From: Bacteroidota bacterium
Lineage (GTDB): Bacteria > Bacteroidota > Bacteroidia > UKL13-3
Length of the DNA: 64,000 bases
Direction of reading: 5' to 3'
Assembly: GCA_034439655.1 (NCBI GenBank)
Contig: JAWXAU010000159.1
Location: 22,526 to 86,525 of the forward strand
Below the pieces are notes generated by a model. That model was not told the DNA's origin and made no database searches. It saw only the letters and a list, made by a program, of their open reading frames with translations. Both the position numbers and the translations under genes were made by a program. This document shows, one piece after another, positions 9,804 to 29,948 of the stretch; positions within the stretch are counted from its first letter, which is position 1, and each line of letters starts with the position of its first letter.

Positions 9804-9807
9804 GGTA

Positions 9808-12396
9808 TTATATAGTTTCTAAAATTTTTATATTTCCTGTCGAACCATCCATCTCCACCCAGTCTCCTGTTTTCAATCTTTGCAATAGTCCTGAAATACC
9901 CACCACACATGGTATCCCCATCTCGCGTGAGACAATAGCTGAGTGGCTGAGCAAACTTCCACGTTCCACCAAAATGCCTGAAGCAGTTGGAAATAATGAT
10001 ACCCAGCCTGGGTCGGTGCTGCTGGTTACCAATATATCTCCATCTAATCCTTCGGCTTCGGAAGGGTGTGTCAATACCCGTACTTTTGCTTTTACAACAC
10101 CTGCACAGCAAGGAATTCCCTTTAAGTCTCCTTCCAAAATTTGCATATTTTTTTCTGCAGCCATTTTGTTGCCTGCATATAAAGGTCCATAACTTTTTAT
10201 CCTTTCTGCTGGATTCATCTTTTCAAAATCGAGATACATTTGTTTGCGAAGTAAAACTAAATCTTTCAAATTACTATGCACGAATGTTCCCTTAATGGCT
10301 CCGAAAATTTCAATTTGTGTTAGATAAAAAATATCAGCAGCGTTTTCCAATAAATGTTCTGCATAGAACTTATTCCCTATCTCCGTAAAAATATTCCTCA
10401 CCATGGCAAAACCTCTGGTCCTTTCGTAGCGAAGGTTTTCACGATTGCTCACTAGATACCGTGCTTTGCCCATGATATAATTGAAGAAGAATTTTTTAAT
10501 GGGTTTATTTTTTAACTTATTATATATAAACAACTCCGCTTCTTTCCTCACTTTGGGTTCTGTATGCACACCTCTAATACTTTCTGCTTTCAAATATCCT
10601 TTTAATATTTGGATATACATTTCTGGTTTTTGACGGTACGTAATTGTTTCCAATTTAAGTTCGCCCACCGTTCTATCTCCCCAACGATCCAAATATTTAT
10701 CTATTTTTTGCTTGAGTTCAAAATACTTTTCATCATGAAGCATTCTCCATATTTTCAGATTGTCCTTTTCCTCAAATAAAGTTTTATATAATATATTTTG
10801 TTTAATAAAGGAGACAAGTTCAAGCCCCATCATAACAGGCTCCACAGAAACAATATCGCCTGATCCTGCCATCAAATCATTATGTAAATTGCTATGTTCA
10901 TCACCAGATATTTTCACCACCAATTTTTGCAAGAGTCCGAAATATATCATACAAAAAAAGTCATTGGTAAGTGGTGCTTTCCATTTTTTCACCAAGGTAT
11001 CTTCAAACTCTAGATAATCATTCATCAATTCATCAGGTCTGCGTTGTGAGAAATCTATCTGTTTATATGTGGTAATAACCTTATTGAAATGTTCTAAGAA
11101 TTCTCTTCGTTGCTTGTCTACCGTAAACAAATTATATAATACAAATCGAATAGCACGCAACACATCCATATAATCACGTAATCCTGCTCGCTTAGGCTCT
11201 TCCGTATTAAATGATTCCTTAACACCCATCATTTTCTCCATGAACTTGGCATTGATGGAAAAGCCAGGCAATAGTGCCAAGGCATTATACCAATTATTCA
11301 AATTATAATATACACGTCCATATATATGTCCCAGCATATTGGCATATACTTCTCCATTGGCTGCAATCACAGAGGGACGAATACCCATGATGGCACTGAA
11401 TTGCCGGTACACACTATCATACATTTTCGCAATAAATGAAAAAGTTAGTGGCAGGGTGAAACCCGGGTATGATTCTATAATATTACTATTGTCCCAAATG
11501 GTGGATTTTGCTCCTGAATCAGGCACGTGCACATGGCTAGTAATAGGACGAGCCTGCAATAAGTATAATATATTGTTTTTATAAGCAAATTCTATATCTT
11601 GGTATTTGTGAAAATACTTATATAATGTATTTAATACTTCTGCTACTTCATAAATTTGTGCATCGCTCAAAGAAGCCTGATTTTGCTTGCCTTCGGGTAC
11701 TGCTACTATTTTTACTCCTGATTTATTCTCAATATCAAAAACCAACATTTCAGTTTTTACTGCAATCTGTTTTTCTATATTGTTTTCTTTGACAGTAAAT
11801 GTATCTGCTAATAATTCTCCCGATACCAAACCTTCACCCAACCCATATAAAGTACTAATCGTTTTCACAGTTCTATTTCCGTCCAATGGGTTGATACCAA
11901 AGCCCACCCCAGCGACATCTGCATCAATCATTTCTTGTATAATTATAGATACAGGGACAATTCTACTTTCACCTGCATTATATACTTTTACCCTAAGTGC
12001 GTATGCCGATTTCCACACTTTTTTAATGGCATTATATATTTCATTGAAGGGAACATATAGTAAAGTTTCATACTGTCCTGCAAAAGATTTATCTCCAGTA
12101 TCTTCTGCAATTCCCGATGATCTTACTGCAAAATATTTAGATTCGTCTACTCCAAAATATGCTTTTAAAGAACTTAGCAGTGCATCATCAAATATATAAT
12201 TGTCAATGATAGTTTCTGGCTTTTCGTTAGGATTGCTTTCAATTTCGTAAATAATAATCGCTGCGGGAACTACTGCATAGTCGGGTACTCTGAGTCCTAT
12301 ACTTTGCAAATGAAATAAATTCCAAGCTTTCATACCAGTGATTTGTTCATCACCGCTTTGTATTTTATAATCTTTAGAAAAAATAATTTGTTTCAT
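9808..12396 (-). CDS. PEP-utilising phosphotransferase, PEP-synthase / rifampin-phosphotransferase-like architecture (PPDK_N ATP-grasp + C-terminal His swivel domain)
   Basis: N-terminal GMKAWNLFHLQSIGLRVPDYAVVP (PEP/pyruvate-binding domain, GxKAxNL). C-terminal GSLLSHSAIVSREMGIPCVVG (PEP-utilisers mobile His domain). 862 aa, as in RPH-family enzymes. Confidence 0.75.
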   Translation of the reverse strand: MKQIIFSKDYKIQSGDEQITGMKAWNLFHLQSIGLRVPDYAVVPAAIIIYEIESNPNEKPETIIDNYIFDDALLSSLKAYFGVDESKYFAVRSSGIAEDTGDKSFAGQYETLLYVPFNEIYNAIKKVWKSAYALRVKVYNAGESRIVPVSIIIQEMIDADVAGVGFGINPLDGNRTVKTISTLYGLGEGLVSGELLADTFTVKENNIEKQIAVKTEMLVFDIENKSGVKIVAVPEGKQNQASLSDAQIYEVAEVLNTLYKYFHKYQDIEFAYKNNILYLLQARPITSHVHVPDSGAKSTIWDNSNIIESYPGFTLPLTFSFIAKMYDSVYRQFSAIMGIRPSVIAANGEVYANMLGHIYGRVYYNLNNWYNALALLPGFSINAKFMEKMMGVKESFNTEEPKRAGLRDYMDVLRAIRFVLYNLFTVDKQRREFLEHFNKVITTYKQIDFSQRRPDELMNDYLEFEDTLVKKWKAPLTNDFFCMIYFGLLQKLVVKISGDEHSNLHNDLMAGSGDIVSVEPVMMGLELVSFIKQNILYKTLFEEKDNLKIWRMLHDEKYFELKQKIDKYLDRWGDRTVGELKLETITYRQKPEMYIQILKGYLKAESIRGVHTEPKVRKEAELFIYNKLKNKPIKKFFFNYIMGKARYLVSNRENLRYERTRGFAMVRNIFTEIGNKFYAEHLLENAADIFYLTQIEIFGAIKGTFVHSNLKDLVLLRKQMYLDFEKMNPAERIKSYGPLYAGNKMAAEKNMQILEGDLKGIPCCAGVVKAKVRVLTHPSEAEGLDGDILVTSSTDPGWVSLFPTASGILVERGSLLSHSAIVSREMGIPCVVGISGLLQRLKTGDWVEMDGSTGNIKILETI

Positions 12397-14945: not shown

Positions 14946-15017
14946 TATTCTTAACTCTTTCCCGCCGCGGCTGGAATATTATGTTTTGTGCTGTAAAGAG
15001 AATTGTAAAAAGGTCTA

Positions 15018-15980
15018 TTATATAATACCCTCCCTATTCAAATCATGAATATGCAAAAGGCCGACGTACTTCCCTGAATCGGTGACTAGAAGTTGCGAAA
15101 TTTTATATTCTCTCACTAGCTCCAAAGCCTCGGTAGCCATAGCATTTTTTTCTATTTGCTTGGGAGCAGTATTCATCAAATTCGTAGCCGTAGTGCCAGC
15201 CAAATTATCAGTTTTTTCTATCAATCGACGCAAGTCCCCATCGGTTATAATACCGCATATCTTATCACCATTAATTACCGCAGTTGCACCTAACCGCCCA
15301 CTACTTATGGAATATATAACTTCTTTTAAAGGTGAATCAGGATTTACAATTGGTTTTTCTGATGATATAATATCACCAACTTTCATATATAATTTTTTGC
15401 CCAAAGCACCGCCTGGGTGAAACTTGGCAAAATCTTCAGGACCAAAATTTCTGCATGATAATAATGCAACTGCAAGTGCGTCACCCATCACCAATTGAGC
15501 CGTGGTACTGCTTGTGGGGGCAAGGTTATTGGGACATGCCTCGGTGCTTATGGTGCAATTCAATAACATATCAGCATGTGTGGCCAAGTAAGAATTTGTA
15601 TTGCCCACCATCGCTATCAATTTATTGCCTGCTCTTTTCAATAATGGGGTGAGTACTTTTATTTCGGAAGTCTCCCCACTTTTACTAATTGCTATTATAA
15701 TATCATCTTGTTGCAAAGTTCCCAAATCTCCGTGCACGGCATCGGCGGCATGCATAAATACGGAGGGCGTTCCCGTACTGTTGAGCGTAGCTACAATTTT
15801 TTGCCCGATAATGGCACTTTTGCCAATGCCCGTAACCACTACTCTTCCCGTGCTTTGTATAATACATTGTACCGCATCTGCAAAACCAGAATCTATATGT
15901 TGTTCCAAAGCCAATATCTCCGCAGCTTCGGTACGAATAGTTTGTTTGGCATTGTCAATGATTTCTTGGGGTGAGAGCAT
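15018..15980 (-). CDS. kpsF: arabinose-5-phosphate isomerase KpsF/GutQ (SIS + tandem CBS domains)
   Basis: GIGKSAIIGQKIVATLNSTGTPSVFMHAADAVHGDLG (SIS). C-terminal CBS pair. Start set at MLSPQEII (ATG at 15980, complement). The track ORF to 16139 is an upstream extension. Confidence 0.85.
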   Translation of the reverse strand: MLSPQEIIDNAKQTIRTEAAEILALEQHIDSGFADAVQCIIQSTGRVVVTGIGKSAIIGQKIVATLNSTGTPSVFMHAADAVHGDLGTLQQDDIIIAISKSGETSEIKVLTPLLKRAGNKLIAMVGNTNSYLATHADMLLNCTISTEACPNNLAPTSSTTAQLVMGDALAVALLSCRNFGPEDFAKFHPGGALGKKLYMKVGDIISSEKPIVNPDSPLKEVIYSISSGRLGATAVINGDKICGIITDGDLRRLIEKTDNLAGTTATNLMNTAPKQIEKNAMATEALELVREYKISQLLVTDSGKYVGLLHIHDLNREGII

Positions 15981-16281
15981 GGGCTTTTTGTTTGGAATTT
16001 GTGGTGCAAATATATGGGGGAGTTTGCAGTTTTTGGTAGACAGTTGTGACCCTGAACGTTCCCGAAAGTATTCGGGAGACAGGTGTAGTTTAGTGTACCT
16101 GAATAAAAATGAATATATAATACTTACTAAAACTATCACTTAGTAATACTGATTATATATATAAAAGTGACGAAAAATACCCAGACATAAAAAGTATTTA
16201 TGTGATTTGGATATTTGGGAAATAGGGATACCATTGAAACGACATTTATAAGACAAATAAGTAAGTTAGCTGTAATTTGAT

Positions 16282-16761
16282 ATGAAGGTAATTTTTCTCG
16301 ATATTGATGGAGTTCTTAATTCCATGGACCATTTGGATAGCCTGATGAAAATAAAACCATACAAAAAAAAACTTGAGCAATTTGATGAAATTACTCATGA
16401 AAAATTTGGTGAAAAATTTGATTTTCGTTGCTGCAATTGGCTCGAATATATTATTGGAGCAACAAAAGCAAAAATTGTTATTTCATCAAGTTGGAAAGAA
16501 ATAGGAATTGTTGGATTAAAAGAAATGTGGATTAAAAGAGCTTTACCAGGAGAAATACTGGATATTACCAAGGAATTAAAATCCTCCAGAGGACAAGAAA
16601 TTGATAATTGGGTTATTGAAAATAATCCTTCATCCTATGTTATAATTGATGATACCGCAGATTTTTTTTTACACCAAAATAAAAATTTAATACTAACCAA
16701 TAGTAAATTTGGACTAACAAGGGAACTATCAGACTTGGCAATTAAAATTTTAGGTACATAA
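16282..16761 (+). CDS. HAD-like small phosphatase-fold protein (HAD_SAK-type)
   Basis: MKVIFLDIDGVLNS (HAD motif I DxDGV), ISSSWK, IIDDTADF motifs. 159 aa. Paralog of the ORF at 42161. Confidence 0.55.
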   Translation: MKVIFLDIDGVLNSMDHLDSLMKIKPYKKKLEQFDEITHEKFGEKFDFRCCNWLEYIIGATKAKIVISSSWKEIGIVGLKEMWIKRALPGEILDITKELKSSRGQEIDNWVIENNPSSYVIIDDTADFFLHQNKNLILTNSKFGLTRELSDLAIKILGT

Positions 16762-16966
16762 CTAATCTGATAATAATCTATAAATTGGGTTAAACAAACT
16801 ACCCCAAACACGGGTTTTGCAATTATAGCCCGAGCCATTTTGCAAGCAGATTGATAAATGAAACGGGTTAGTGTCAAATGATTCAGATGGTTATAAAACA
16901 CAAATCGGCTCGGGTGGGAAACGTTATAAATTTTTGTTTTAAATATTACCAATTATTACTAGCTTT

Positions 16967-17227
16967 GTGAAAAAAATTATGGCACGAAACACCTGTGTTT
17001 CTTTGGGTAATTATTTTGAAACCTTTGTTGATAGCAGCGTTTCAGAAGGTAGATTTAAAAATGCCAGTGAAGTTATTAAAGCTGGTTTAAGATTATTGGA
17101 AGAAGAAGAAAATAAAATTAGGACACTTAAAATTGCCATAAACGAAGGAATTGAAAGTGGCATTGCTGAAGACTTCAATCCCAAACTTCATCTTAAATCT
17201 TTAAAAGCCAAAAGGAAAAATGGCTGA
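16967..17227 (+). CDS. parD: type II antitoxin ParD (RHH/CopG-like)
   Basis: VSLGNYFETFVDSSVSEGRFKNASEVIKAGLRLLEEEENK is a typical ParD sequence. Stop overlaps the start of the downstream toxin by 8 nt. Confidence 0.8.
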   Translation: MKKIMARNTCVSLGNYFETFVDSSVSEGRFKNASEVIKAGLRLLEEEENKIRTLKIAINEGIESGIAEDFNPKLHLKSLKAKRKNG

Positions 17228-17519
17228 GTATAAACTTACTAAAAAAGCTGTTGAAGATTTATCTAAAATTTGGGACTACACATATAGAGCTTGGTCTGAA
17301 AATCAGGCAGACAAATATTATTGTCAACTCCTTGAAGTTTGTCAAGAATTAGTTGAGAATCACAATTTGGGCAGCAATTATAACGACATTGGAAATGAAG
17401 TTTTGGGCTGCAAATCTCGCGAACATATAATTTTTTACAGAATTCTTAATAATAAAGTAATTGAAATTACTAGATTTCTTCACATAAGAATAGATTTGAA
17501 AAACAGGATTCAAGAATAA
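17220..17519 (+). CDS. parE: type II toxin ParE/RelE family
   Basis: 99 aa. YKLTKKAVEDLSKIWDYT...IIFYRILNNKVIEITRFLH matches ParE toxins. Translationally coupled to parD. Confidence 0.8.
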   Translation: MAEYKLTKKAVEDLSKIWDYTYRAWSENQADKYYCQLLEVCQELVENHNLGSNYNDIGNEVLGCKSREHIIFYRILNNKVIEITRFLHIRIDLKNRIQE

Positions 17520-17621
17520 AACTGCAGTTAACATATATATAGCTAAATTTCAAAAATAATATTACACTATATAATAAAAGTGAGAATTATATAAGATGAA
17601 AAAATCAGAAAAAAAATTAAA

Positions 17622-17993
17622 ATGATTGTAGAAAAAACCAAAACGGGCTTTTCTGCTTTTTCTGAGGAATATCCAATATTCACTGCAGCTAGGTCTATTA
17701 GTGAGTTAATAGATAATTCATACGAAGCGGCGAATCTCTATTTTGTCGATGATAAAATTAAAATAACGCACGATAATTTAAAACTTGAAATTGATTTCAA
17801 ACACTTTTTTAAATATTATAAAGTTTTAAATTCAAAATTTTTGGCTAATAAAATAGGAAAGAATCCTACTCTTTTGTCACAATATGTACAAGGTCATAAA
17901 AAACCCTCGCATACACAAACAGAAAAAATATTATCAGGTGTACATCAGATTGGTCAAGAACTTTCGGAGATAAATTTGATATATAGACGATAA
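17622..17993 (+). CDS. hypothetical protein with C-terminal XRE-type HTH (HicB/HigA-antitoxin-like?)
   Basis: LANKIGKNPTLLSQYVQGHKKPSHTQTEKILSGVHQIG resembles an XRE HTH. N-terminal part of unknown fold. Confidence 0.35.
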   Translation: MIVEKTKTGFSAFSEEYPIFTAARSISELIDNSYEAANLYFVDDKIKITHDNLKLEIDFKHFFKYYKVLNSKFLANKIGKNPTLLSQYVQGHKKPSHTQTEKILSGVHQIGQELSEINLIYRR

Positions 17994-18065
17994 TACTATA
18001 ATAAAAATTCAAATAAACATATTTTTTTACCATCAGAACAATATTAGAATAAAACAATATAAACA

Positions 18066-18530
18066 ATGAAACAATATTTTTTAAGACAAATTAAATCAGA
18101 AATTTGGGCAAACAAAATGATAGCAGATGCTATTGAAAAAGCCCACGAACCTGCTGAGAGAACCTTAGTACTTTTTTCACATATACTATCTGCATACAGT
18201 ATGTGGTTAAGCAGAATAAATGGTACCGCAATTACCTGTACACTTTTTCAGGATAGAACTTTAGCCGAATGTAAAATATTGATGAATGAAGTGTTCGAAG
18301 GTTATACAAACCATATAACAAATGCCGATGAAAATGAATTAAATAGAATCGTACATTTTACCTTTCCGCTTGATGGAAGCAAACGCAAAATGGCTGTCGC
18401 CGATGCCCTCACACATGTGGTAACACATTCATTCTATCACCGTGGGCAAATTGTAACAAGCCTAAAAGGAAAGATAGAACCATTACCGCTTACAACGTAT
18501 ATTGCTTTCGCAAGTGAGATGGATTCTTAG
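18066..18530 (+). CDS. DinB/YfiT-like family protein (putative metal-dependent hydrolase fold)
   Basis: LTHVVTHSFYHRGQIV C-terminal motif and about 150 aa length are typical of the DinB_2 family. Confidence 0.5.
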   Translation: MKQYFLRQIKSEIWANKMIADAIEKAHEPAERTLVLFSHILSAYSMWLSRINGTAITCTLFQDRTLAECKILMNEVFEGYTNHITNADENELNRIVHFTFPLDGSKRKMAVADALTHVVTHSFYHRGQIVTSLKGKIEPLPLTTYIAFASEMDS

Positions 18531-18619
18531 TTAAAAACTAAAAACTAAAAGTGCTTACGCCACCCTTTTCCCGAATACTTTCGGGAACGCTCAGGGTTAC
18601 AACTGTAAACTAATATATT

Positions 18620-19357
18620 ATGACACGAATAGAATTAATTAATCAGATTTTTGATCAAACGGATTTTACAAACTACCTCGAAATAGGTACTGAAAAAGGA
18701 TTTTCTCTATTGCCTATCAAATGCAAAAACAAAATCTCGGTAGACCCTTTTTACAAGATAAAATTGCGTACAAAACTGAAGTGGCTTATTAAAATTCCTG
18801 CTAATTTTAATAACAAATATTTTGAAGAAACAAGTGATGATTTTTTTGATAAAAGAAAAAAAGTATTACAAGATTTTGGCTCAATTGATATCGCATTTTT
18901 AGACGGTCTTCACACCTTCGAAGCTTCGCTAAATGATGTATTAAATTCACTTAAGTATTTAAACCCCAAAGGTATTATAATCATGCACGATTGCTTTCCA
19001 CCCCACAAAGCAGCGGGCTTGCCCACTAGAGATTTCCCCCGTGATGACGAACAACAAGTTGAAGGTTGGACTGGTGAATGGTGCGGTGATGTATGGAAAA
19101 CTATTGTATACCTACGCACCAATTTATCTGAGCATTTGGATGTATGTGTTATCAATACCGATTATGGATTGGGTATTATAAGGATTAAAAGTAAAAATGA
19201 TACCGATTTAAGTATTGATAAAAAATCATTCGATGAAATTGATAAGATGGATTACGATGCTATGATACAAAATGGTGCATCAATGATAGATTTGAAAAAT
19301 GTTGACTACGCAAAGAAAATCATTGAAGAAGTTGCGGCTAACTTTCCAAAAGTTTAA
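18620..19357 (+). CDS. class I SAM-dependent methyltransferase (TylF/MycF / CmcI-like)
   Basis: LEIGTEKGFS (motif I), DIAFLDGLHTFEASLNDV and IIMHDCFP match metal-dependent O-methyltransferase-like class I MTases. Confidence 0.5.
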   Translation: MTRIELINQIFDQTDFTNYLEIGTEKGFSLLPIKCKNKISVDPFYKIKLRTKLKWLIKIPANFNNKYFEETSDDFFDKRKKVLQDFGSIDIAFLDGLHTFEASLNDVLNSLKYLNPKGIIIMHDCFPPHKAAGLPTRDFPRDDEQQVEGWTGEWCGDVWKTIVYLRTNLSEHLDVCVINTDYGLGIIRIKSKNDTDLSIDKKSFDEIDKMDYDAMIQNGASMIDLKNVDYAKKIIEEVAANFPKV

Positions 19358-19754
19358 ACCTTTTGGAAAGTTTAAAAACAGCCCAATGTGTGAATTATGT
19401 AATTATTTAACCTTGTTATGTAATTTTTCTGAGCATCGTGCTGTTCATATTTGCGTATGAATAATTTATTTAGAACTATCATTGCTGGTTATACCGCAAA
19501 AAAATTAGGTGGTGGATGTCTAGGAACCATTATAATTTTTATAATTGTATATATGATGTTGGAACGGTGTTAATACATCGAAACGCTAAAAGGAAAGATT
19601 TCTTTTGTTACAAAGTAATTCCCTAGCTGGCAAGGCGAATGCTTGATTTTAAACGAGATCAAAATGTGGGAATTATGTAATATTTTAAAATGATTATATA
19701 GCATTGCTCTCGCGGTACTATCTCACTTTTGTGTCAAGTATCAATATAAGGATT

Positions 19755-19934
19755 ATGGCAAAAAAAGCAATAGACAAAGTTGAAAAAGTGATGCACGAGT
19801 TCAAGGAAGGCACTTTAAAATCGGGCAAGGAAGGGGACGGTGGGATTGTAAAAAGCAGAAAGCAAGCAATAGCAATTGGGTTAAGCGAAGCAAGGGAAGC
19901 AGGTGCCAATGTACCAAAAAAGAAAAGCAAATAA
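19755..19934 (+). CDS. small conserved stress-associated protein (DUF6496-like)
   Basis: MAKKAIDKVEKVMHEFKEGTLKSGKEGDGGIVKSRKQAIAIGLSEAREAGA resembles the small KGG/DUF6496-type proteins. Start chosen at the internal Met of ORF 19704..19934. Confidence 0.4.
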   Translation: MAKKAIDKVEKVMHEFKEGTLKSGKEGDGGIVKSRKQAIAIGLSEAREAGANVPKKKSK

Positions 19935-20808
19935 TGCTATGCAGAAGACTAACCCGAAGAAAAAACTCTTCAAAAAACAATCGCAGCCCCATCCAGGCAT
20001 GGAATACAAAATGGATCCTTTGCCAATATACGACAATGATTTACTAGGAAGCAACAAACTCTTAAACAAAAAATGTATTATTACTGGAGGAGATAGTGGG
20101 ATAGGAAGAGCAGTGGCTATTGCTTTTGCAAAACAAGGTGCAGACATTGCTATACTTCACCTTGAAAGCGAAAAAAGAGATGCAAATGCTACTGCCAAAT
20201 ATATACAAGAAAAGTATCATAGAAACTGCATTGCTTTGGCCGCTGATATTTCAAAAGAAGGTAATTGTAAAACAGCTATTCACACCCTAATAAAAACATT
20301 TCATAGTATAGATGTATTGGTGAACAATGCTGCCGTGCACTATCCTGTTGATGATATTTTAAAAATTACTACCAAACAATTAATCGAAACTTTTTCGGTA
20401 AACATTTTTTCAATGTTTTGGCTTACAAAAGCTGTGTTGCCATATATGAAGAAAGGTTCTAATATTATCAATACTACCTCGGTAACAGCCTATCGTGGAA
20501 GTGGGGGCCTGTTAGACTATAGTGCCACAAAAGGAGCCATAGTTTCATTTACACGAAGCCTTTCTGCTAATTTAATGGAAAAAGGAATACGGGTGAATGG
20601 TGTATCACCTGGCCCAGTGTGGACGCCTTTGGTACCCGCAAGCTTTTCCTCATCCCAAGTGGAAGTATATGGTACTGATACACCTATGAAACGACCAGCT
20701 CAGCCCTCGGAAATTGCACCTGCTTATGTGTTTTTGGCAAGTGACGATGCCAGTTATATTTCAGGGCAATTTATACATGTTAACGGTGGCGAAATTATAA
20801 ACGGATAA
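19903..20808 (+). CDS. SDR-family oxidoreductase, general-stress-protein-39 (YhxC/YdaD)-like
   Basis: Lys-rich N-terminal tail then PGMEYKMDP...ITGGDSGIGRAVAIAFAKQGADIAI (TGxxxGIG Rossmann motif) and NAAVHYP, as in YhxC-type SDRs. Alternative starts at 19939 or 19999. Confidence 0.75.
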   Translation: MPMYQKRKANNAMQKTNPKKKLFKKQSQPHPGMEYKMDPLPIYDNDLLGSNKLLNKKCIITGGDSGIGRAVAIAFAKQGADIAILHLESEKRDANATAKYIQEKYHRNCIALAADISKEGNCKTAIHTLIKTFHSIDVLVNNAAVHYPVDDILKITTKQLIETFSVNIFSMFWLTKAVLPYMKKGSNIINTTSVTAYRGSGGLLDYSATKGAIVSFTRSLSANLMEKGIRVNGVSPGPVWTPLVPASFSSSQVEVYGTDTPMKRPAQPSEIAPAYVFLASDDASYISGQFIHVNGGEIING

Positions 20809-20821
20809 TATAATAATATAT

Positions 20822-21592
20822 ATGAAAGCAATTTGGAAAGGAGCAATCAATTTTGGACTGGTAAATATACCTGTAAAACTATATAGTGCCACCGAGCAAA
20901 GTAATCTTGATATGGATATGGTTGATAGCAGAGACATGAGTAAAATTCGTTTTCAACGCGTAAATGAAAATACGGGGAAGGAAGTGAAATGGGAAAATAT
21001 AGCAAAAGCATATCTGTTAGATGGTGAGTTTATAATGTTAGAGGACGCTGATTTTGAGCAGGCGGCACCCGAAAAAAGTAAAATAATTGAGGTTAACCAT
21101 TTTATTGATGAAGGTGAAATTGATACCATCTATTTTGAAAATTCATATTATGTGGAACCAGAAAAAAGTGGTGAAAAAGCTTATGCGTTATTGCATGAAG
21201 CTCTCGCAAAATCGGGCAAGGTGGGCATTGCTCAGTTTGTGTTGCGGACAGCAGAAACAATAACCGTATTGAAACCACTTAACAATATTTTAGTATTGAG
21301 TAAAATACGATTTGCACAAGAAATACGAAGTACAGAAGATTTTAACCTCCCTGCAAAATCTGTGGTGAAGCCCGCTGAACTAAAAATGGCCATCTCACTT
21401 ATTGAACAATATACAGAACCTTTCAATATTGAAAAATACAAAGATGAGTATGCCAGCGAACTGCTTAAAGTAATCAAAGCCAAAGCCACAGGCAAGAAAA
21501 TTAGAGGCCCAAAACTAAAAGTAAAATATAATAAAACAGATAACCTCATGGATCAACTCAAAGCTAGTTTATCGAAAAAGAAAGTATCATAA
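20822..21592 (+). CDS. ku: Ku protein (NHEJ DNA end-binding)
   Basis: MKAIWKGAINFGLVNIPVKLYSATE is the classic bacterial Ku N-terminus. 256 aa. Confidence 0.9.
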   Translation: MKAIWKGAINFGLVNIPVKLYSATEQSNLDMDMVDSRDMSKIRFQRVNENTGKEVKWENIAKAYLLDGEFIMLEDADFEQAAPEKSKIIEVNHFIDEGEIDTIYFENSYYVEPEKSGEKAYALLHEALAKSGKVGIAQFVLRTAETITVLKPLNNILVLSKIRFAQEIRSTEDFNLPAKSVVKPAELKMAISLIEQYTEPFNIEKYKDEYASELLKVIKAKATGKKIRGPKLKVKYNKTDNLMDQLKASLSKKKVS

Positions 21593-21596
21593 CACA

Positions 21597-24089
21597 ATGA
21601 GCTTATCACTATATAAAAAGAAAAGGAATTTTGCAAATACACCAGAGCCCGATGCTGCAAAAGGAGTGAAAAAATCGACACTAAGTTTTGTAGTGCAGCG
21701 GCATCATGCCTCTAATTTGCACTATGATTTCAGACTAGAAATGGAAGGCGTACTGAAAAGTTGGGCTGTACCTAAAGGTCCTTCCATGGTAGCTGGGGAG
21801 AAACGCTTGGCAGTGCTCGTAGAAGACCATCCATTACCTTACGGAAAGTTTTATGGAGAAATACCAAAAGGAAATTACGGGGCGGGCACTGTAGAAATAT
21901 GGGATGCAGGAACCTATCGCACTATTGAAGAAAGTAGTAATGAAGAAAAAACATTGCTGGCACAGTTATATAAAGGGGATGTGAAATTTATAATAAACGG
22001 CAATTATTTACAAGGTGAATTTGCATTGGTACGTATGAATGATGGTGAAAGAAAAAATTGGTTATTGATCAAAAAAAAAGATGGATTTGCACAAAATAAT
22101 TTTAATATAGAATCATTGCCGCCATTAAAATCAACCAATAAAAAAAAAGTAAAACCTGGCAGCAAGAATATAGCAGTGCCTAAAAAAGCACAACCTCTAA
22201 AAGAGGACCCATTCCCAACAGAAGTTATTAAACCAATGTTGGCAAAACTTGGCGAGACCGTAATAGACGATACAGATTGGCTCTATGAAGTAAAGTACGA
22301 TGGTTATAGGGCAATCGCCAAAATAAATAATGGTAAGGTGGAAATGTTTTCACGCAATGGTAATAATTTCACCAACACTTACCAACTATTGGTAAGTGAA
22401 TTGGCAACCATTCAAGAAAATATTATTTTGGATGGTGAAATGGTCATAGAAAATAAAAAAGGGGTAAGCGATTTTCAATTATTGCAAAACTATAGTAAAA
22501 CCAAACAAGGAGTATTAAAGTATTATATATTTGATTTGCTTTATTTGAATGGCCATAGTACCGTTTCGTTAACCTTAAAAGAAAGAAAAGAACTGCTTGA
22601 AATGTTCTTTAAGAATTATAATTTTAAGAACATTTACAATTCCGCTTTTCAAATCGGCGATGGTAAAACTTTGTTCAACAAACTTTCTGTGAAGGGTTAC
22701 GAGGGAATCATTGCAAAAGACCCCGATAGTAGGTACCTACTAGGTAGACGTAGTGAAGCATGGTTAAAAATAAAAGTGACTATGATGCAAGAAGTTGTTA
22801 TATGTGGGTACACATTGCCACAAAATAGTCGTAAATATTTTGGTTCACTTATACTGGGATTATATGATGGCAAAGTACTAAAATATATTGGAAATTGTGG
22901 TACTGGATTTACAGAAGTTTCGCTTAAGGAATTGCATACTTTTTTTGAGAAATTAAAAACCACAGAATGTCCCTTTATTATTCAACCAAAACTTGCAGGT
23001 ACAAAAGGCAAGCCCGTATGGCTAAAACCTAATTTAGTATGTAATGTCAAATTTTCTGAATGGACACAGAATGAGCACATGCGAGTACCTGTTTTTATGG
23101 GTATTCGCACCGATAAAAAAGCGGAGGAAGTTATTAATGAAACTATAAAAACAACAGAAAAAACTAACAGCCAATCCGAAAAAGAAAAAACCATAATTAT
23201 AGCAGGCAAAAAAGTAAAGTGTACTAATATAACAAAAGTATACTGGCCTGAGCAAGGTTATACCAAAGGCGATTTACTTAATTATTATCAAACAATTTAT
23301 AAATACCTGCTGCCGTACTTAAAAAACAGGCCGCAATCATTAAATAGGCACCCTAACGGGATTACAGGCCATAATTTTTACCAAAAAGATATGGAAGTAA
23401 AGCAATTGCCTGATTGGATTAAAACGGTAAAGTTGTATTCAAAATCGAACAACTCATATATTAACTATTTACTGTGCAATGATGCAGCCACCCTTATTTT
23501 AATGGCCAATATGGGCTGCATAGAAATCAACCCATGGCATAGCACCTTTATGAATGTAGATGAACCTGATTATATGATCCTTGATTTAGACCCGGGTAAT
23601 ATTTCATTTGTGGATGTAGTTGATACTGCTTTGGTGATACAAGAAATATGTACTGAAATACAAATTCCTTCTTATTGTAAAACAAGTGGTGCCACGGGTT
23701 TACATATTTATATTCCACTGGGAGCCAAATATAATTACGCCGAAGTAAAAATATTTGCAGAATTATTAGCGGTTATTACTCACAGCAGGCTACCACATAC
23801 TACAAGTATTGAACGTTCAGTGGCAAAACGTCCAGATAAAATATATATAGATTTTTTACAAAACAGGAAAGGGCAAACAATAGCAGCCCCCTACAGTATT
23901 CGTCCCAAAAATTTTGCAACTGTTTCTACCCCGCTTTTATGGAAAGAAGTGAATCATAAATTAACGCCTGAAAAGTTCACGATAAAAAATACAGAAAAGC
24001 GATTGCAAAAAATGGGAGATTTGTGGCAGCCTGTTTTAAAAAAAGGGATCATACTTGCCAAAGCACTGAAATTAATCGAGAAGTTATAA
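21597..24089 (+). CDS. ligD: ATP-dependent DNA ligase LigD (phosphoesterase - ligase - polymerase domain order)
   Basis: N-terminal FVVQRHHASNLHYDFRLEMEGVLKSWAVPKGPS (3'-phosphoesterase). EVKYDGYRA adenylation lysine motif. C-terminal primase-polymerase domain. 830 aa. Confidence 0.9.
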   Translation: MSLSLYKKKRNFANTPEPDAAKGVKKSTLSFVVQRHHASNLHYDFRLEMEGVLKSWAVPKGPSMVAGEKRLAVLVEDHPLPYGKFYGEIPKGNYGAGTVEIWDAGTYRTIEESSNEEKTLLAQLYKGDVKFIINGNYLQGEFALVRMNDGERKNWLLIKKKDGFAQNNFNIESLPPLKSTNKKKVKPGSKNIAVPKKAQPLKEDPFPTEVIKPMLAKLGETVIDDTDWLYEVKYDGYRAIAKINNGKVEMFSRNGNNFTNTYQLLVSELATIQENIILDGEMVIENKKGVSDFQLLQNYSKTKQGVLKYYIFDLLYLNGHSTVSLTLKERKELLEMFFKNYNFKNIYNSAFQIGDGKTLFNKLSVKGYEGIIAKDPDSRYLLGRRSEAWLKIKVTMMQEVVICGYTLPQNSRKYFGSLILGLYDGKVLKYIGNCGTGFTEVSLKELHTFFEKLKTTECPFIIQPKLAGTKGKPVWLKPNLVCNVKFSEWTQNEHMRVPVFMGIRTDKKAEEVINETIKTTEKTNSQSEKEKTIIIAGKKVKCTNITKVYWPEQGYTKGDLLNYYQTIYKYLLPYLKNRPQSLNRHPNGITGHNFYQKDMEVKQLPDWIKTVKLYSKSNNSYINYLLCNDAATLILMANMGCIEINPWHSTFMNVDEPDYMILDLDPGNISFVDVVDTALVIQEICTEIQIPSYCKTSGATGLHIYIPLGAKYNYAEVKIFAELLAVITHSRLPHTTSIERSVAKRPDKIYIDFLQNRKGQTIAAPYSIRPKNFATVSTPLLWKEVNHKLTPEKFTIKNTEKRLQKMGDLWQPVLKKGIILAKALKLIEKL

Positions 24090-24119
24090 ATTACTATATA
24101 GTTTTGAATAGCAATTGTA

Positions 24120-24992
24120 TTATAATACATTCAACACTTGTTCCTTCACTTTCTCTAGTTCATCCTTCATTCCCACCACCAGTTGTTGTATTTCAAAATG
24201 GTTTGCTTTGCTACCCATTGTATTTATTTCGCGTAGCATCTCTTGGGCAATAAAACCAAGCTTCTTCCCTGATTCGGCTTCATCAATATTTTGTAAAAAA
24301 TAATTTAAGTGTTGTTGCAAACGTGTTTTTTCTTCTGCAATATCTAGCTTTTCTATATAATATATAATCTCTTGCTCCAAGCGGTTATTGTCTATATTCT
24401 CGGGCAATATATATTTGTTGAGTTGTGTTTGTATTTTTTCTCTTACGGCAATTAATCGGGCTGGCTCAAAAGTAGCAACTTTATCCAATTTTTGTTGAAG
24501 GTTATTGATACACTCTTTCAAATGGTTCTCGATAGTTTTTCCTTCATCAGCCCTAAAAATATTGAGACTGGCACATGCTTCCAAAATTAATTTTTCGGTG
24601 AGAATCCAATCTTGCTCAGCAAGTTCACGGTCGTTGGGCACTAGCACTTCGGGCAAAGTGAGTACTTGGTTATATATACCTTTGGCTTCAAAATTCATAT
24701 TTTTGGTTGCCTCTCGTATCTCTTTTATATAATTTGCCAGTACCGCCCCATTAATGGTATTTGCAAGCGATGCTTCCGATTTATATTGCCAAGTTATATT
24801 GCATTGTATGGTGCCACGCACTATTTGTTGGTTCAACATATTCCGTACTTGCAATTCTTTGGAAGAAAGCAAGCGAGGCAACCTGAGGTTAAATTCTGCG
24901 AACTTCCCGTTGAGGGTTTTAATCTCTACTTTGGCATGTAGTTTTTCGCTTTCGAACCTAGCAAGGCCATATCCAGTCATGGATTTTATCAT
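24120..24992 (-). CDS. yicC: YicC/YloC-family stress-induced protein
   Basis: MIKSMTGYGLA N-terminus (YicC_N) and coiled-coil C-terminal region. 290 aa. Confidence 0.8.
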   Translation of the reverse strand: MIKSMTGYGLARFESEKLHAKVEIKTLNGKFAEFNLRLPRLLSSKELQVRNMLNQQIVRGTIQCNITWQYKSEASLANTINGAVLANYIKEIREATKNMNFEAKGIYNQVLTLPEVLVPNDRELAEQDWILTEKLILEACASLNIFRADEGKTIENHLKECINNLQQKLDKVATFEPARLIAVREKIQTQLNKYILPENIDNNRLEQEIIYYIEKLDIAEEKTRLQQHLNYFLQNIDEAESGKKLGFIAQEMLREINTMGSKANHFEIQQLVVGMKDELEKVKEQVLNVL

Positions 24993-25894
24993 ACTGTAGC
25001 TTTTTTATATAATTTATTATTTACCAAAAACACTCCTGCAAAAATAAGTAAGGTATACCCTGCTTTTTCTAGCGTCATTTTATCTTCTCCAGCCATTTCT
25101 GCAAGTAAGGTGGTCAATACTGGCTGCAAATATATATAACTTCCCACCAAACTAGAACTTCCATGCCTTAATGACCATGCATTGAGCAGATAGGTAACAA
25201 AGGAAGAAGCTATAATAATAAATGCGATATATATCCAGATTTGTGAAGGGATTTGTTCCCATTTTACTTCAGAAATTTCAACAAGGCCAAAGGGCAACAC
25301 AAATATACTTCCATATAGAAATGTCCATTTAGAAACTGTGATGGGATTGTATTTCGACATTAAAGGACGGGAGTATACCAAATAGAAAGAATATATAATA
25401 GCATTTATTGTTATCATTAAATCGCCGGCTGCTGTTTCGCTGCTGAATTTTAAATCGGGACCAGCTATTAATAAAGTAGCACCTGTGGTGGCAATTAATA
25501 CACCTGCTAGTTTGCCTAATGTGAGCTTCTCTGTTCCATATATAGCGGCCACTATCACCACAAATATGGGTGTACAAGTCATTAAAACCGCACCATTGAT
25601 AGGCACTGTATTGGCAAGCCCTTTAAAGAACAATAACATATTTGCCCCAACCCCAAACACGCTGCAAATAATAAATTTGATATGGTCTTTTTTGTCAACT
25701 ATTTTTTCCTTAACAAATAACTGGTGAATTAAGAGATATAATAATGCTGATACGGAAACTCGCAACAAAATGAAACCAAAAGGATGAATATATACATTCA
25801 TTACCTTGCGGGCAATAATAAATGTAACGGCATATATAAGTGCTACAACAAATAAGGCCAAGTGGACTTTTATAGAAGTGCTTTTAGAAATCAA
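24989..25894 (-). CDS. DMT-superfamily (EamA) transporter
   Basis: 10-TM pattern, two EamA-like halves. 301 aa. 4-bp overlap with yicC. Confidence 0.7.
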   Translation of the reverse strand: MISKSTSIKVHLALFVVALIYAVTFIIARKVMNVYIHPFGFILLRVSVSALLYLLIHQLFVKEKIVDKKDHIKFIICSVFGVGANMLLFFKGLANTVPINGAVLMTCTPIFVVIVAAIYGTEKLTLGKLAGVLIATTGATLLIAGPDLKFSSETAAGDLMITINAIIYSFYLVYSRPLMSKYNPITVSKWTFLYGSIFVLPFGLVEISEVKWEQIPSQIWIYIAFIIIASSFVTYLLNAWSLRHGSSSLVGSYIYLQPVLTTLLAEMAGEDKMTLEKAGYTLLIFAGVFLVNNKLYKKATV

Positions 25895-25923
25895 GCCACG
25901 AAAATCGGTGAAAATTCGTATAA

Positions 25924-26024
25924 AATACCATTTCTTAAACTATAATAGTTCTACGCCAACGGCGGATTTCCGTATTAGAATGGTAATGCCGAACTACATC
26001 CCGAAAGCCCTTTCGGTATAATAC
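25924..26024. repeat. interspersed repeat element, copy B (short form)
   Basis: ttcttaaactataatagttctacgccaacggcggatttccgtattagaatggtaatgccgaactacatcccgaaagcc matches copies A/C/D, with a compensatory-looking change in the hairpin (cgccaacggcg versus ccgcctgtggcgg). Confidence 0.75.
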
Positions 26025-27677: not shown

Positions 27678-29948
27678 TCAATGAAACACCAACACCTTAC
27701 CCACCTTATGTTGAAACGCGTCACTCGTATTTGCGAAGATGAGATACACCCCTGTATGAACACGCTCGCCTTTAAAATTTTTGATATCCCAAGTGGCAAT
27801 GCCACCGCTTGATTGTATCTCGTTTACGATGTTTCCTACAGCATCTGTTATCTTGATATTAGAATTATCGATGAGTCCTTTAATAGTTACATTGCCATGA
27901 TAGTTAGAGTTTACGGGATTGGGAAATATAACAAGACTATCATAGTTTTCTGCACCTTGGTTGGCATCACCTTTTACAGATACCATTCCTTTGTCGGTAG
28001 ATATAAATACCTCGCCAGTGGTAGGATTCACGCCAATACGTGATACAAAATTAGATATAAGCGGGCTATTGTCTTTGGTATAATTTTTCAATATTTTCTG
28101 TCCATCGGCACTAATCAAATATGCCCCATTTCGTGTGCCCACCCACTTGCGATTTGCAGGATCAACAGCTACACAGTTTACCACATCCTCCCCAAAAAGC
28201 CATTGCGGTTTGCCATTTACTGTTATCACAATTCGCTGTGCATCGAAATTGGTTTTTGTAGAAAATATATTGCCCGGTGAATAAAAAACTACCAAGCCTT
28301 TTTTGGTGGCCACCCACATATTGCCCTCTCTATCTTTGGCTACCTGCGATACTTCCAAATCGGGCAATAGCCCGCCCCCTACATCAGTTCCCAATAATTT
28401 GGAACGTGGTGGCCCGGGATTATTATTATTATTACCTTCGTCGAAAACTATGATACCTTTTCCGCGTGGTGCAACCATCCATTTTTGGCCAAGATCGTCG
28501 AGAACAATATCTACAAATACATCGGATATACCTGATAAGGAACCTAAATTATATGATTCCCATTTATAGTTGGTATCCATTTTTACTATTACATCCTTAG
28601 TGCCGGGATTTGAAATCCAAAGGTTTCCTTTGTCATCGAAAGTGAGACCACTAATTTGAAAAATAGAATAGGTGCCTAGTTTTAAACTATCCAATTTACA
28701 CCCATTAACTCCAGGAATAAATGCTTGCGTTACTTTGTTGTTCACCATCTCAATTAACCCATACCCGAATGAGCCGATATATACTTTTTTGTTAAATGGA
28801 TTCACGGCTATTTTATAAAAGTCACGCATATTATCCATGATAGGATCGGGCTGTGTATAGTTTATCCATTTCTCACCGTCGTAAAGCGAGAAACGATCAT
28901 TCCCATATAATGGCGAAAATATTTGGTTAGGACCCGTGGAGGCCGTCCACAGGTTAGTTTCATCGAAGCACATATCGGTTAGCCTTTTGCTTGTGGGGCC
29001 ATTGGGAGAGATAAACCCCAAGTTTCCATTCGCTTGATATACGATTAACCCGTACGCATAGTCAGCTATATAAATATCGTCATTCTTTATTTGAATAACA
29101 TGCCTTTTTTGTACTTCCACAATTGCTTTAACCAAGCTTTTGTTTTTTAATATTATAATACTATCACCTTTGTTCACAATCAAACTACCATAGTTACTTT
29201 CCAAACTATATAACAGACTTTTTCCTATACTATAATAGTTGCTAAAAACACCATTAGCATAAGTTTGGAGTGTACTATCTACGCCAACTACAATTGTGTT
29301 TTCATGATTAATTATATGTGAACAGCCACCCCCTTGGTATATATACTTCCACTGATGGTAATCGGCTAGGTTAGGTGAAAGGATAGATGCGGATATGATA
29401 CCCGTAGGAGTAGCGGCAAATATTGAATCCTCTTTGATGGTTAGCGAATTTATTTCTACCGAACTTCCTCCCTGTCCTAAATTTTCATACGATTCCGATA
29501 TTTCGCGTTTATCTAAATCGAATCGAACAATACCAAAACTACATGACAGATAAGCAAAATTCTTATGATAATATATATGATTTATTTGTTTCTTACCAAT
29601 AATAGGTGTTTTTAAAATATCGGGGTAATGTGAAACATTCTCGTTTTCTATAATATCAATATTGGTATTAGCATAAGCAACCAAGAATAATTTTTTGCCC
29701 TCATTGTATCTTATCAGTGTAGCCTCCGTTTCTCCCAGTCCTTCCACAGTGGTAAAAGTGCGAACTGTATTATAGGTGGGGTCATAAATAAAAAGACCGC
29801 TATTGGTTGCAGCCCACACCTCACCACTTCCCTCGGTTACATTGTTTACATGCGTAAAAGGCATGTGGGCTTTCCATGTTCCAATTCTCTGTGCTGCCAC
29901 ATTGCCCAAAAAAAACATGCACAAAATGTATAAATTTATTCTTCTCAT
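27678..29948 (-). CDS. secreted beta-propeller (two-component-regulator-propeller-like repeats) protein with T9SS type-A C-terminal sorting domain
   Basis: Signal peptide. Repeated W/Y-containing propeller-blade motifs. C-terminus FPNPVNSNYHGNVTIKGL...GVYLIFANTSDAFQHKVGKVLVFH matches the Por_Secre_tail (type A CTD). Confidence 0.6.
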   Translation of the reverse strand: MRRINLYILCMFFLGNVAAQRIGTWKAHMPFTHVNNVTEGSGEVWAATNSGLFIYDPTYNTVRTFTTVEGLGETEATLIRYNEGKKLFLVAYANTNIDIIENENVSHYPDILKTPIIGKKQINHIYYHKNFAYLSCSFGIVRFDLDKREISESYENLGQGGSSVEINSLTIKEDSIFAATPTGIISASILSPNLADYHQWKYIYQGGGCSHIINHENTIVVGVDSTLQTYANGVFSNYYSIGKSLLYSLESNYGSLIVNKGDSIIILKNKSLVKAIVEVQKRHVIQIKNDDIYIADYAYGLIVYQANGNLGFISPNGPTSKRLTDMCFDETNLWTASTGPNQIFSPLYGNDRFSLYDGEKWINYTQPDPIMDNMRDFYKIAVNPFNKKVYIGSFGYGLIEMVNNKVTQAFIPGVNGCKLDSLKLGTYSIFQISGLTFDDKGNLWISNPGTKDVIVKMDTNYKWESYNLGSLSGISDVFVDIVLDDLGQKWMVAPRGKGIIVFDEGNNNNNPGPPRSKLLGTDVGGGLLPDLEVSQVAKDREGNMWVATKKGLVVFYSPGNIFSTKTNFDAQRIVITVNGKPQWLFGEDVVNCVAVDPANRKWVGTRNGAYLISADGQKILKNYTKDNSPLISNFVSRIGVNPTTGEVFISTDKGMVSVKGDANQGAENYDSLVIFPNPVNSNYHGNVTIKGLIDNSNIKITDAVGNIVNEIQSSGGIATWDIKNFKGERVHTGVYLIFANTSDAFQHKVGKVLVFH

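Follow-up and report, generated by a model that had tools for sequence, protein, structure and literature searches.

A predicted DUF6496-SDR-ku-ligD operon in a Bacteroidota bacterium as a probable stress-linked non-homologous end joining locus

In bacterial NHEJ (non-homologous end joining), a Ku homodimer threads onto DNA ends and recruits DNA ligase D (LigD). No template is needed, the ends being trimmed, filled and sealed by the phosphoesterase (PE), primase-polymerase (Pol) and ATP-dependent ligase (Lig) domains of LigD. The process is believed to serve bacteria chiefly when they are not growing, and how it is regulated has, to our knowledge, been established only for a few Proteobacteria and for Bacillus spores. 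Here we consider a ku-ligD pair in a 64-kb stretch of DNA from a Bacteroidota bacterium (contig JAWXAU010000159.1; hereafter the window, to which all coordinates refer), where it stands behind genes for a DUF6496 protein and a short-chain dehydrogenase/reductase (SDR) in a cluster at 19755–24089 on the + strand. With a probability of about 0.7, we read this cluster as a conventional NHEJ operon belonging to a regulon of general-stress or stationary-phase type and made in non-growing cells. The first-pass annotation of the window had likened it to a stationary-phase or desiccation-survival module, a likeness that gains support from the recurrence of the partner genes beside Ku-LigD elsewhere and by an upstream motif common to csbD and DUF892 genes.

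In Pseudomonas aeruginosa, ku (PA2150) lies in the RpoS- and quorum sensing-linked PA2134-92 locus together with genes for an SDR (PA2142) and a KGG protein (PA2146) (PMC3224232; PMC9262955). There, as in the window, NHEJ genes stand among stress-type genes, those of P. aeruginosa being SDR, KGG and trehalose/glycogen genes. P. aeruginosa LigD (PA2138) has the same PE-Lig-Pol order as the LigD of the window, with 2LJ6 aligning to residues 3–167 of the latter and 2FAO (Pol) to residues 551–807, and both Ku proteins have an extended basic C-terminus. The layouts differ, in that ku and ligD of P. aeruginosa are about 12 genes apart by locus number in an island of about 60 genes, whereas the window packs four genes into 4.3 kb. 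The small protein is DUF6496 here and KGG (PA2146) there, the promoter motif differs, and the SDRs are likened only as SDRs, not by subfamily. Moreover, while the P. aeruginosa locus is RpoS-linked, we know of no RpoS, SigB or EcfG in Bacteroidota.

In Sinorhizobium meliloti, the general stress sigma factor RpoE2 (EcfG) controls ku3-ku4/ligD4, heat and starvation stimulate repair, and about 90% of the alpha-Proteobacteria that carry ku have EcfG boxes upstream of it (PMC6379672). The window resembles this system as a probable case of NHEJ in a general-stress regulon recognisable by a common promoter motif. In S. meliloti, however, the regulation has been shown by experiment, the promoter is of the extracytoplasmic function (ECF) sigma type (EcfG/RpoE2 box) and there are multiple Ku and LigD paralogues, whereas the window has a motif recognised in silico (a direct repeat plus a -7 TTTG), a single Ku, a single LigD and extra genes predicted to share the operon. 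In Bacillus subtilis, ku is under SigG (PMC6379672). There the SigG-dependent forespore proteins YkoV (Ku) and YkoU (LigD) are encoded by a two-gene ku-ligD operon and belong to a dormant, single-chromosome state and to desiccation and radiation resistance, although, unlike what is proposed for the window, their regulation is tied to sporulation. B. subtilis LigD lacks a PE domain and has a different domain order.

NHEJ-positive Bacteroidetes are all reported to have the conventional form of the system, with several independent gains, and the phylum has seen repeated gain and loss of NHEJ (Sharda et al., PMC7719229). The Ku-LigD pair of the window conforms to this established system, and control of NHEJ by stress has precedents in other phyla. 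The literature searched held nothing relevant on NHEJ regulation or LigD in Bacteroidota, on TGTAAC motifs, or on a neighbourhood link between NHEJ and topoisomerase IB (TopIB). Nor was any description found, in the open-access literature searched, of a DUF6496-SDR-(TopIB)-Ku-LigD module, of a DUF6496-NHEJ link across phyla, or of a TGTAAC repeat tying NHEJ to csbD/YciF-type genes.

Ku, LigD and the genes upstream of them

All four genes of the cluster lie on the + strand in the order DUF6496-SDR-ku-ligD, as read from the list of open reading frames (ORFs).

19755–19934, + strand: DUF6496 protein, small and basic, 59 aa, heading the cluster (Pfam PF20106)
19939–20808, + strand: classical SDR oxidoreductase of the YdaD/YghA (PRK06701-like) type, 289 aa (adh_short_C2, 3.8e-58)
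20822–21592, + strand: ku, bacterial Ku, 256 aa (TIGR02772, PF02735)
21597–24089, + strand: ligD, DNA ligase D, 830 aa (Pfam and NCBIfam)
21696–22034, + strand: LigD_N (PE) domain, LigD residues 34–146
22233–22775, + strand: DNA_ligase_A_M, ligase nucleotidyltransferase domain, LigD residues 213–393
22830–23117, + strand: LigD OB domain, LigD residues 412–507
23262–24026, + strand: LigD_Prim-Pol, primase-polymerase domain, LigD residues 556–810

The ORF coordinates first assigned to the cluster (DUF6496 19755–19934, SDR end 20808, ku 20822–21592, ligD 21597–24089) were reproduced, as were the gaps of 13 bp between SDR and ku and 4 bp between ku and ligD, both of which can be read from the junction sequence. 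The true start of the SDR gene is ATG 19939, not GTG 19903, because close homologues begin MQKSNP... and independent gene calls from the same species give 289 aa. With this start, DUF6496 and SDR too are only 4 bp apart, and the packing is tight throughout the cluster. There are no terminator-like hairpins in the short gaps between the cluster genes, and it is most likely that DUF6496-SDR-ku-ligD forms a single, predicted transcription unit.

Ku scores 288.6 bits against TIGR02772 (cutoff 150) over residues 2–250 of 256, matches PF02735 at 2.7e-47 and has an extended, Lys-rich C-terminus. Only 4 bp separate its stop codon from the ligD start, so that Ku and ligase D are paired in the genome. 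LigD exceeds the NCBIfam cutoffs (in brackets) of TIGR02776 with 536.6 bits (373.2), TIGR02777 with 202.2 (144), TIGR02778 with 241.3 (214.7) and TIGR02779 with 284.8 (227.75). Its Pol domain aligns with the Methanocella NHEJ polymerase 5DMU (1.2e-50), its ligase domain with Mycobacterium tuberculosis 1VS0 (3.6e-47) and its PE domain with P. aeruginosa 2LJ6 (6.4e-43). The roles of the catalytic residues are taken from a structural review (PMC8656161). In the PE domain, H36, H42, D44, R46, H78 and Y82 are kept; in the ligase domain, K233 within KYDGYR (233–238), R253, DGE 279–281 (E281), EGIIAK 369–374 and WLKIK 389–393; and in the Pol domain, D663/D665, SGATGLH 697–703 (S697/H703), D752 and R769. 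The Pfam domains and the KYDGYR at 233–238 confirm the three-domain, PE-Lig-Pol LigD of the first-pass annotation, which had named a degenerate domain as grounds for giving up its reading; catalytic motifs are present in all three domains. The pair is ordinary, canonical and apparently intact NHEJ machinery. An identical Ku protein is found on the Bacteroidota metagenome-assembled genome (MAG) GCA_964566565.1 and on three metagenome contigs with conserved gene order, while the nearest LigD among species-representative genomes is 65% identical (a Crocinitomicaceae MAG), with a Fluviicola MAG at 59%.

The SDR has a complete signature (TGGDSGIG at 49–56, NNA at 129, Ser181 and Y194xxxK198), and its best solved relatives are Bacillus anthracis 3I3O (2.7e-96) and Salmonella 3R3S (3.1e-72), with which it shares an N-terminal extension bearing a PG.E..M.P.P motif. 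It is thus like B. subtilis general stress protein 39 (GSP39, YdaD) and enterobacterial YghA (PRK06701/PRK06128/PRK07985), which are classical SDRs of about 290 aa with the same N-terminal motif, although it falls under the curated cutoffs of all three NCBIfam models and the likeness rests on 3I3O and 3R3S. The gene ydaD turns up in the SigB-regulon literature. A GSP39-like identity had been proposed from both the N-terminus and a Lys-rich tail. The former holds by way of the two structures, while the tail does not: in the SDR the Lys-rich residues (3–13) are at the N-terminal end, the protein ends ...HVNGGEIING, and the Lys-rich C-terminal tail belongs to Ku.

The 59-aa protein matches PF20106 at 1.1e-27 and 96.6 bits (gathering score 24) over 56 of 58 model positions. 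Of its earlier label, 'KGG/DUF6496-like', the DUF6496 half is therefore correct and the KGG half is not; a KGG-repeat identity (YciG/YmdF, PF10685) was rejected, there being no match even at E<=10. Homologues fall into at least 7956 clusters, and 25 columns of the family are invariant, yet no paper on it was found despite its thousands of members. An AlphaFold2 model has a helix at residues 3–18, a hairpin at 22–31 and a second helix at 35–48 (pLDDT 81.5), and a Foldseek search of this model against the PDB gave no match with E<1.

Partner genes beside Ku and LigD in other genomes

Gene neighbourhoods were compared in three samples, namely (a) 80 Bacteroidota LigD loci with 8 kb on either side, (b) nine further genomic contexts of DUF6496 homologues and (c) 80 metagenome contigs retrieved with DUF6496. 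The association of DUF6496 and the YdaD-type SDR with Ku-LigD is non-random. In sample (a), where Ku adjoins LigD in 38 of 80 loci, DUF6496 is near LigD in eight (about 5 lineages) and a YdaD-like SDR of at least 53% identity in five (about 4 lineages), against a chance expectation of 0.25–0.75 loci for single-to-few-copy genes. SDR counts were confined to the YdaD-like subfamily; adjacency of generic SDRs to LigD (cluster 2, 15 of 81 loci) was set aside as uninformative, SDRs being too numerous. Other neighbours of LigD in the 80 loci are DUF892/YciF (11), DUF2383 (9), DUF3606 (8) and TopIB (6), while KatG, KatE, Hsp20 and a GSP26-like protein each turn up in a few.

Among the metagenome contigs, Ku or LigD lies no more than 4 kb from DUF6496 in 10 of 80, and in 8 of the 32 that are at least 5 kb long, while chance would give 0.15–0.29 contigs (Poisson P<1e-12). 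One of the DUF6496 contigs with NHEJ genes, L164, is a relative of the window (GC 0.41, LigD fragment 58% identical). The others represent other lineages, since their GC is 0.54–0.73 and their Ku/LigD are 28–41% identical to those of the window. LigD is found downstream of DUF6496 by 12 bp (L097) or 177–181 bp (L127, L133), and Ku is divergent from it by 183–202 bp in L115 and L119. NHEJ genes are the most frequent identifiable neighbours of DUF6496 (13 of 84 loci, versus six for DUF892). Inspection by eye suggests that DUF6496-LigD is followed in L133 (4803–10116) and L127 (5281–6696) by large TreY/TreZ/GlgX-like (trehalose/glycogen) genes, an arrangement that recalls the ku-trehalose cluster of P. 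aeruginosa.

By LigD identity (57–65%), the window forms one clade with loci L001–L004, L085, L088 and L169. The order is DUF6496-SDR-TopIB-Ku-LigD in L085 and L088, DUF6496-Ku-LigD in L169 (with DUF6496 119 bp before Ku) and SDR-Ku-LigD in L001, while L002 and L003 have Ku-LigD with DUF6496 adjacent on the opposite strand. DUF6496 and/or the SDR thus flanks Ku-LigD in 7 of 7 judgeable loci of the eight, L004 having been left out of the tally because its flanking sequence is too short. Order and orientation vary across the clade, and the link to the partner genes has therefore outlived rearrangement. Elsewhere, DUF6496 is found in the order DUF6496-SDR-BON (L086) or beside DUF892 and Ku (L087), and four of the nine extra contexts are without an NHEJ gene.

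Several variants of these neighbourhoods were seen. A bacterial TopIB of the poxvirus type lies between SDR and Ku in L085 (9097–10209) and L088 (9161–10273), is found a few kb or less from LigD in six further Bacteroidota loci (L018, L020, L025, L028, L041 and L043) and adjoins DUF6496 in metagenome contig L123 (2179–2622). In L087, Ku is split into two called fragments of 187 and 60 aa (9507–10289), and TopIB is cut to an 89-aa N-terminal piece beside DUF6496, DUF892 and CsbD, suggesting that this copy of the module is decaying or that the sequence is misassembled. In L009 (6–4265; Cytophagaceae MAG) and L010 (54–4234; Cytophaga MAG), Ku-LigD is preceded by a co-oriented gene of 244 aa that, by eye, we took for a putative DUF72; this arrangement would add one more form to the stress-linked NHEJ operons.

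An upstream direct-repeat motif and a candidate regulator

A direct repeat was spotted by eye upstream of DUF6496 genes and followed up by pattern scan, giving the motif (A)TGTAAC-N15-TGTAAC-N25-TTTG, in which TTTG is the 3' end of the Bacteroidetes -7 box. In related genomes it is present in several copies per locus, each ahead of a gene. It precedes DUF6496 in L085, L088, L169, L164 and L173 (and, with N16 spacing, in L086), csbD in L085, L087, L088 and L169, and DUF892 in L085 and L088, as well as genes for small proteins. A matrix of 66 columns was built from 16 sites in L085, L087, L088, L164, L169 and L173, with none from the window and L086 unused. One training site, in L164 (5277-), precedes a stand-alone LigD-Pol-like gene. 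The features of the upstream region in the window are as follows.

19670–19735, + strand: proximal promoter/operator-like site, 21.9 bits, best match in the window
19392–19457, + strand: distal promoter/operator-like site, 19.7 bits, second-best match in the window
19457–19573, + strand: possible small hydrophobic ORF, 38 aa (ORF list; 40 aa from TTG 19451)

When both strands of the window were scanned, the two best matches both fell in the 380-bp gap upstream of DUF6496, and the third-best reached 12.6 bits. Markov-simulated windows had a maximum of 7.7 +/- 3.4 bits, with 21.9 bits reached in 0 of 200 and 19.7 bits in 2 of 200. The proximal site, which lies about 20–25 nt ahead of the DUF6496 start codon, reads TGTAAT (19676–19681), N15, TATAGC (19697–19702), N25, TTTG, and the distal site reads TGTAAT (19398–19403), N15, TGTAAT (19419–19424), N25, TTTG and ends at the ATG of the small ORF. 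Both hold the exact spacing half-site-N15-half-site-N25-TTTG, and the architecture of the proximal site is that of the sites before DUF6496, csbD and DUF892 in L085, L088, L169 and L164. In silico, then, the NHEJ operon has a promoter motif in common with general-stress genes of the csbD/DUF892 type. Matches outside the training set precede the putative DUF72-Ku-LigD operon of L009 (26.3 bits), an AraC-family gene in L076, a small membrane-peptide gene in L164 and others.

The small hydrophobic ORF at 19451–19573 (38–40 aa), MNNLFRTIIAGYTAKKLGGGCLGTIIIFIIVYMMLERC, follows directly on the distal copy of the motif. It has no Pfam match and is uncalled on public contigs of the same species. L164 offers a parallel, in that the motif precedes the small membrane-peptide gene there as the distal copy precedes this ORF. 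It may encode a membrane peptide of the same regulon, or may be just leader sequence of the operon.

A conserved regulatory module of three genes, which encode a small AraC-family protein (HTH_18), a response regulator with a receiver domain only and a histidine kinase of the CHASE3-PAS type, is found beside the csbD/DUF6496/Ku-LigD genes in L085 (4135–6969), L088 (1652–4440), L169 (2928–5738) and L164 (5421–8278). The direct repeat has a period of 21 bp, with the proximal half-site at about -33. A direct repeat with its proximal half-site at the -33 element is the arrangement of AraC-type class II activation (AraC I1-I2). By this analogy, the AraC-family protein of the module fits as a candidate regulator, with an alternative sigma factor equally possible, and the motif before the AraC-family gene in L076 could reflect autoregulation.

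Other searches of the window gave little. A consensus sigma-70 promoter scan returned 30 matches against 19.2 +/- 4.7 in shuffles and was discarded, this promoter type being inapplicable to Bacteroidota. The Bacteroidetes housekeeping promoter TTTG-N17-23-TAnnTTTG occurs 11 times in the window against 5.7 expected, and none of its matches lies between 19373 and 19754. Plain 9-mer enrichment upstream gave A/T-rich noise only, and an Rfam scan of 15000–26000 (E<=0.1) gave two sub-threshold chance matches and no riboswitch or leader RNA.

Taken as a mechanism, the preferred reading would have one or two predicted promoters at 19392–19735, each a TGTAAY-N15-TRTARC direct repeat 25 nt upstream of a -7-type TTTG box, drive all four genes. 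The regulon would turn NHEJ on at growth arrest, whether by starvation, desiccation or oxidative stress, and Ku-LigD would then mend double-strand breaks in cells with a single chromosome copy, where homologous recombination is unable to act. The SDR and DUF6496 would act as co-regulated stress proteins or protectants, rather than as proven NHEJ factors. From these gene orders and motifs we infer that the four genes are co-transcribed and induced by stress, and likewise which regulator acts on them.

Genomic setting, rival explanations and implications

The cluster closes a block of + strand genes (16282–24089) that is bounded by - strand housekeeping genes and contains, upstream of the gap, the following features.

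16282–16761, + strand: HAD_SAK_2 protein ('HAD domain in Swiss Army Knife RNA repair proteins'), 159 aa (3.3e-23)
16967–17519, + strand: ParD antitoxin and ParE toxin, overlapping genes (4.6e-23 and 4e-16)
17622–17993, + strand: unannotated 123-aa ORF after ParD/ParE
18066–18530, + strand: DinB-family protein
18620–19357, + strand: Methyltransf_24 protein
19340–19372, + strand: hairpin with a 13-bp stem, covering the stop codon of the upstream methyltransferase gene

The hairpin has a folding energy of -21.7 kcal/mol (z = -4.8; as stable in 0 of 200 shuffles by RNA folding) and is unlisted by a consensus terminator scan because it has no T-tract; it is likely the 3' boundary of the preceding transcription unit. 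On the other side, a yicC-like gene (24120–24992) is convergent with ligD. Given its HAD_SAK_2, ParD/ParE, DinB-family and methyltransferase genes, the block looks like flexible genome. The HAD_SAK_2 gene stands alone and opens the block that ligD ends, and GC is low (0.26–0.33) from ParD/ParE to the methyltransferase. A tRNA scan found none in the window, and hence no tRNA-linked island boundary. PorZ at 27678–29948 confirms that the genome is that of a Bacteroidota bearing a type IX secretion system (T9SS), and the product of a giant ORF of 3854 aa (52367–63931, - strand) is probably secreted or located at the cell surface of this T9SS-bearing bacterium. The window contains no BON homologue.

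Several points weigh against a stress-linked NHEJ operon. Many of the loci compared are related, so that the counts overstate the number of independent events. At 20–22 bits, the copies of the motif in the window fall short of the training sites, which score 23–42 bits when left out one at a time, and the second half-site of the proximal copy is degenerate (TATAGC). NHEJ genes in L001–L004 and most other Bacteroidota loci lack the motif upstream, and the regulon is therefore lineage-limited. No homologue of csbD, DUF892, TopIB or the AraC/response regulator/CHASE3 histidine kinase module lies within the 64 kb of the window, and promoters inside coding sequence, or a separate start for ku-ligD, could break up the predicted transcription unit. 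The SDR scores 384.9 bits on NF005214 (PRK06701), its nearest NCBIfam subfamily, where the cutoff is 413, and is likewise under the cutoff on NF004782 (297 versus 481) and NF005939 (263 versus 538); it is a close relative of the NF005214 subfamily and not a member by the NCBI criterion.

Among the rivals, the most interesting casts DUF6496, and possibly the SDR, as an accessory factor dedicated to NHEJ instead of a co-regulated stress protein. Being small and basic, it could for instance bind to DNA ends or to Ku/LigD and protect or modulate the repair of breaks. DUF6496 is highly conserved and basic, with a confident helix-hairpin-helix model, and it stands directly beside Ku or LigD in very different lineages (L097, L127, L133, L115, L119 and L169), with NHEJ genes heading its identifiable neighbours at 13 of 84 loci versus 6 for DUF892. 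However, DUF6496 is missing from the 8 kb on either side of LigD in 72 of the 80 Bacteroidota loci, many DUF6496 genes lie away from any NHEJ gene (L086, L170–L173 and most of the metagenome contigs), and the predicted fold, with no PDB match, gives no hint of a DNA-binding family. The promoter motif of DUF6496 is moreover common to csbD and DUF892 (L085, L088, L169, L164), as simple regulon membership would predict, and we regard a dedicated role as unlikely, if worth keeping in mind.

Adjacency might instead be meaningless, with an autonomous ku-ligD operon that has landed by chance beside two unrelated genes in a variable, horizontally acquired region. The position of the block between - strand housekeeping genes and its ParD/ParE, DinB-family and methyltransferase genes suggest such a flexible region, NHEJ has been gained and lost many times in Bacteroidetes (PMC7719229), and an SDR near a given gene means little when generic SDRs are so plentiful. 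Yet both partner families recur by Ku-LigD, in rearranged layouts and in other phyla, far above chance; gaps of 13 and 4 bp leave no room for an intergenic promoter; and the only significant motif matches in the window are upstream of DUF6496. Because of this recurrent association and the shared promoter motif, chance adjacency is quite improbable. Still harder to credit is that LigD works mainly in Ku-independent repair, that is, base-excision or ribonucleotide-linked gap repair of oxidative damage, with the SDR in a redox or detoxifying role. Catalases and other oxidative-stress genes do neighbour LigD in several loci, and dRP-lyase and abasic-site activities are described for B. subtilis LigD (PMC4770248; PMC4245934), but an intact Ku 4 bp from ligD is the signature of a conventional NHEJ pair.

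A stress-linked, conventional NHEJ operon thus remains the preferred reading. A bolder version, which we put forward tentatively and hold to be doubtful as it stands, is that Bacteroidota have an as yet undescribed general-stress regulon marked by TGTAAC-N15-TGTAAC-N25-TTTG and probably driven by the AraC-family/CHASE3-PAS/response regulator module, in which NHEJ, sometimes with TopIB, would be a core function and DUF6496 a specific NHEJ partner across phyla.

The locus gives DUF6496 a first functional context, in that members of the family lie beside Ku or LigD far above chance in several phyla. Together with its relatives it also offers a testable handle, with a compact predicted operon, a candidate cis-element and a candidate regulator module. 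If the proposed stress linkage is true, it would help to explain the survival of desiccation and starvation by soil and freshwater Bacteroidota, and would extend the minimal NHEJ system of bacteria by a possible new factor.

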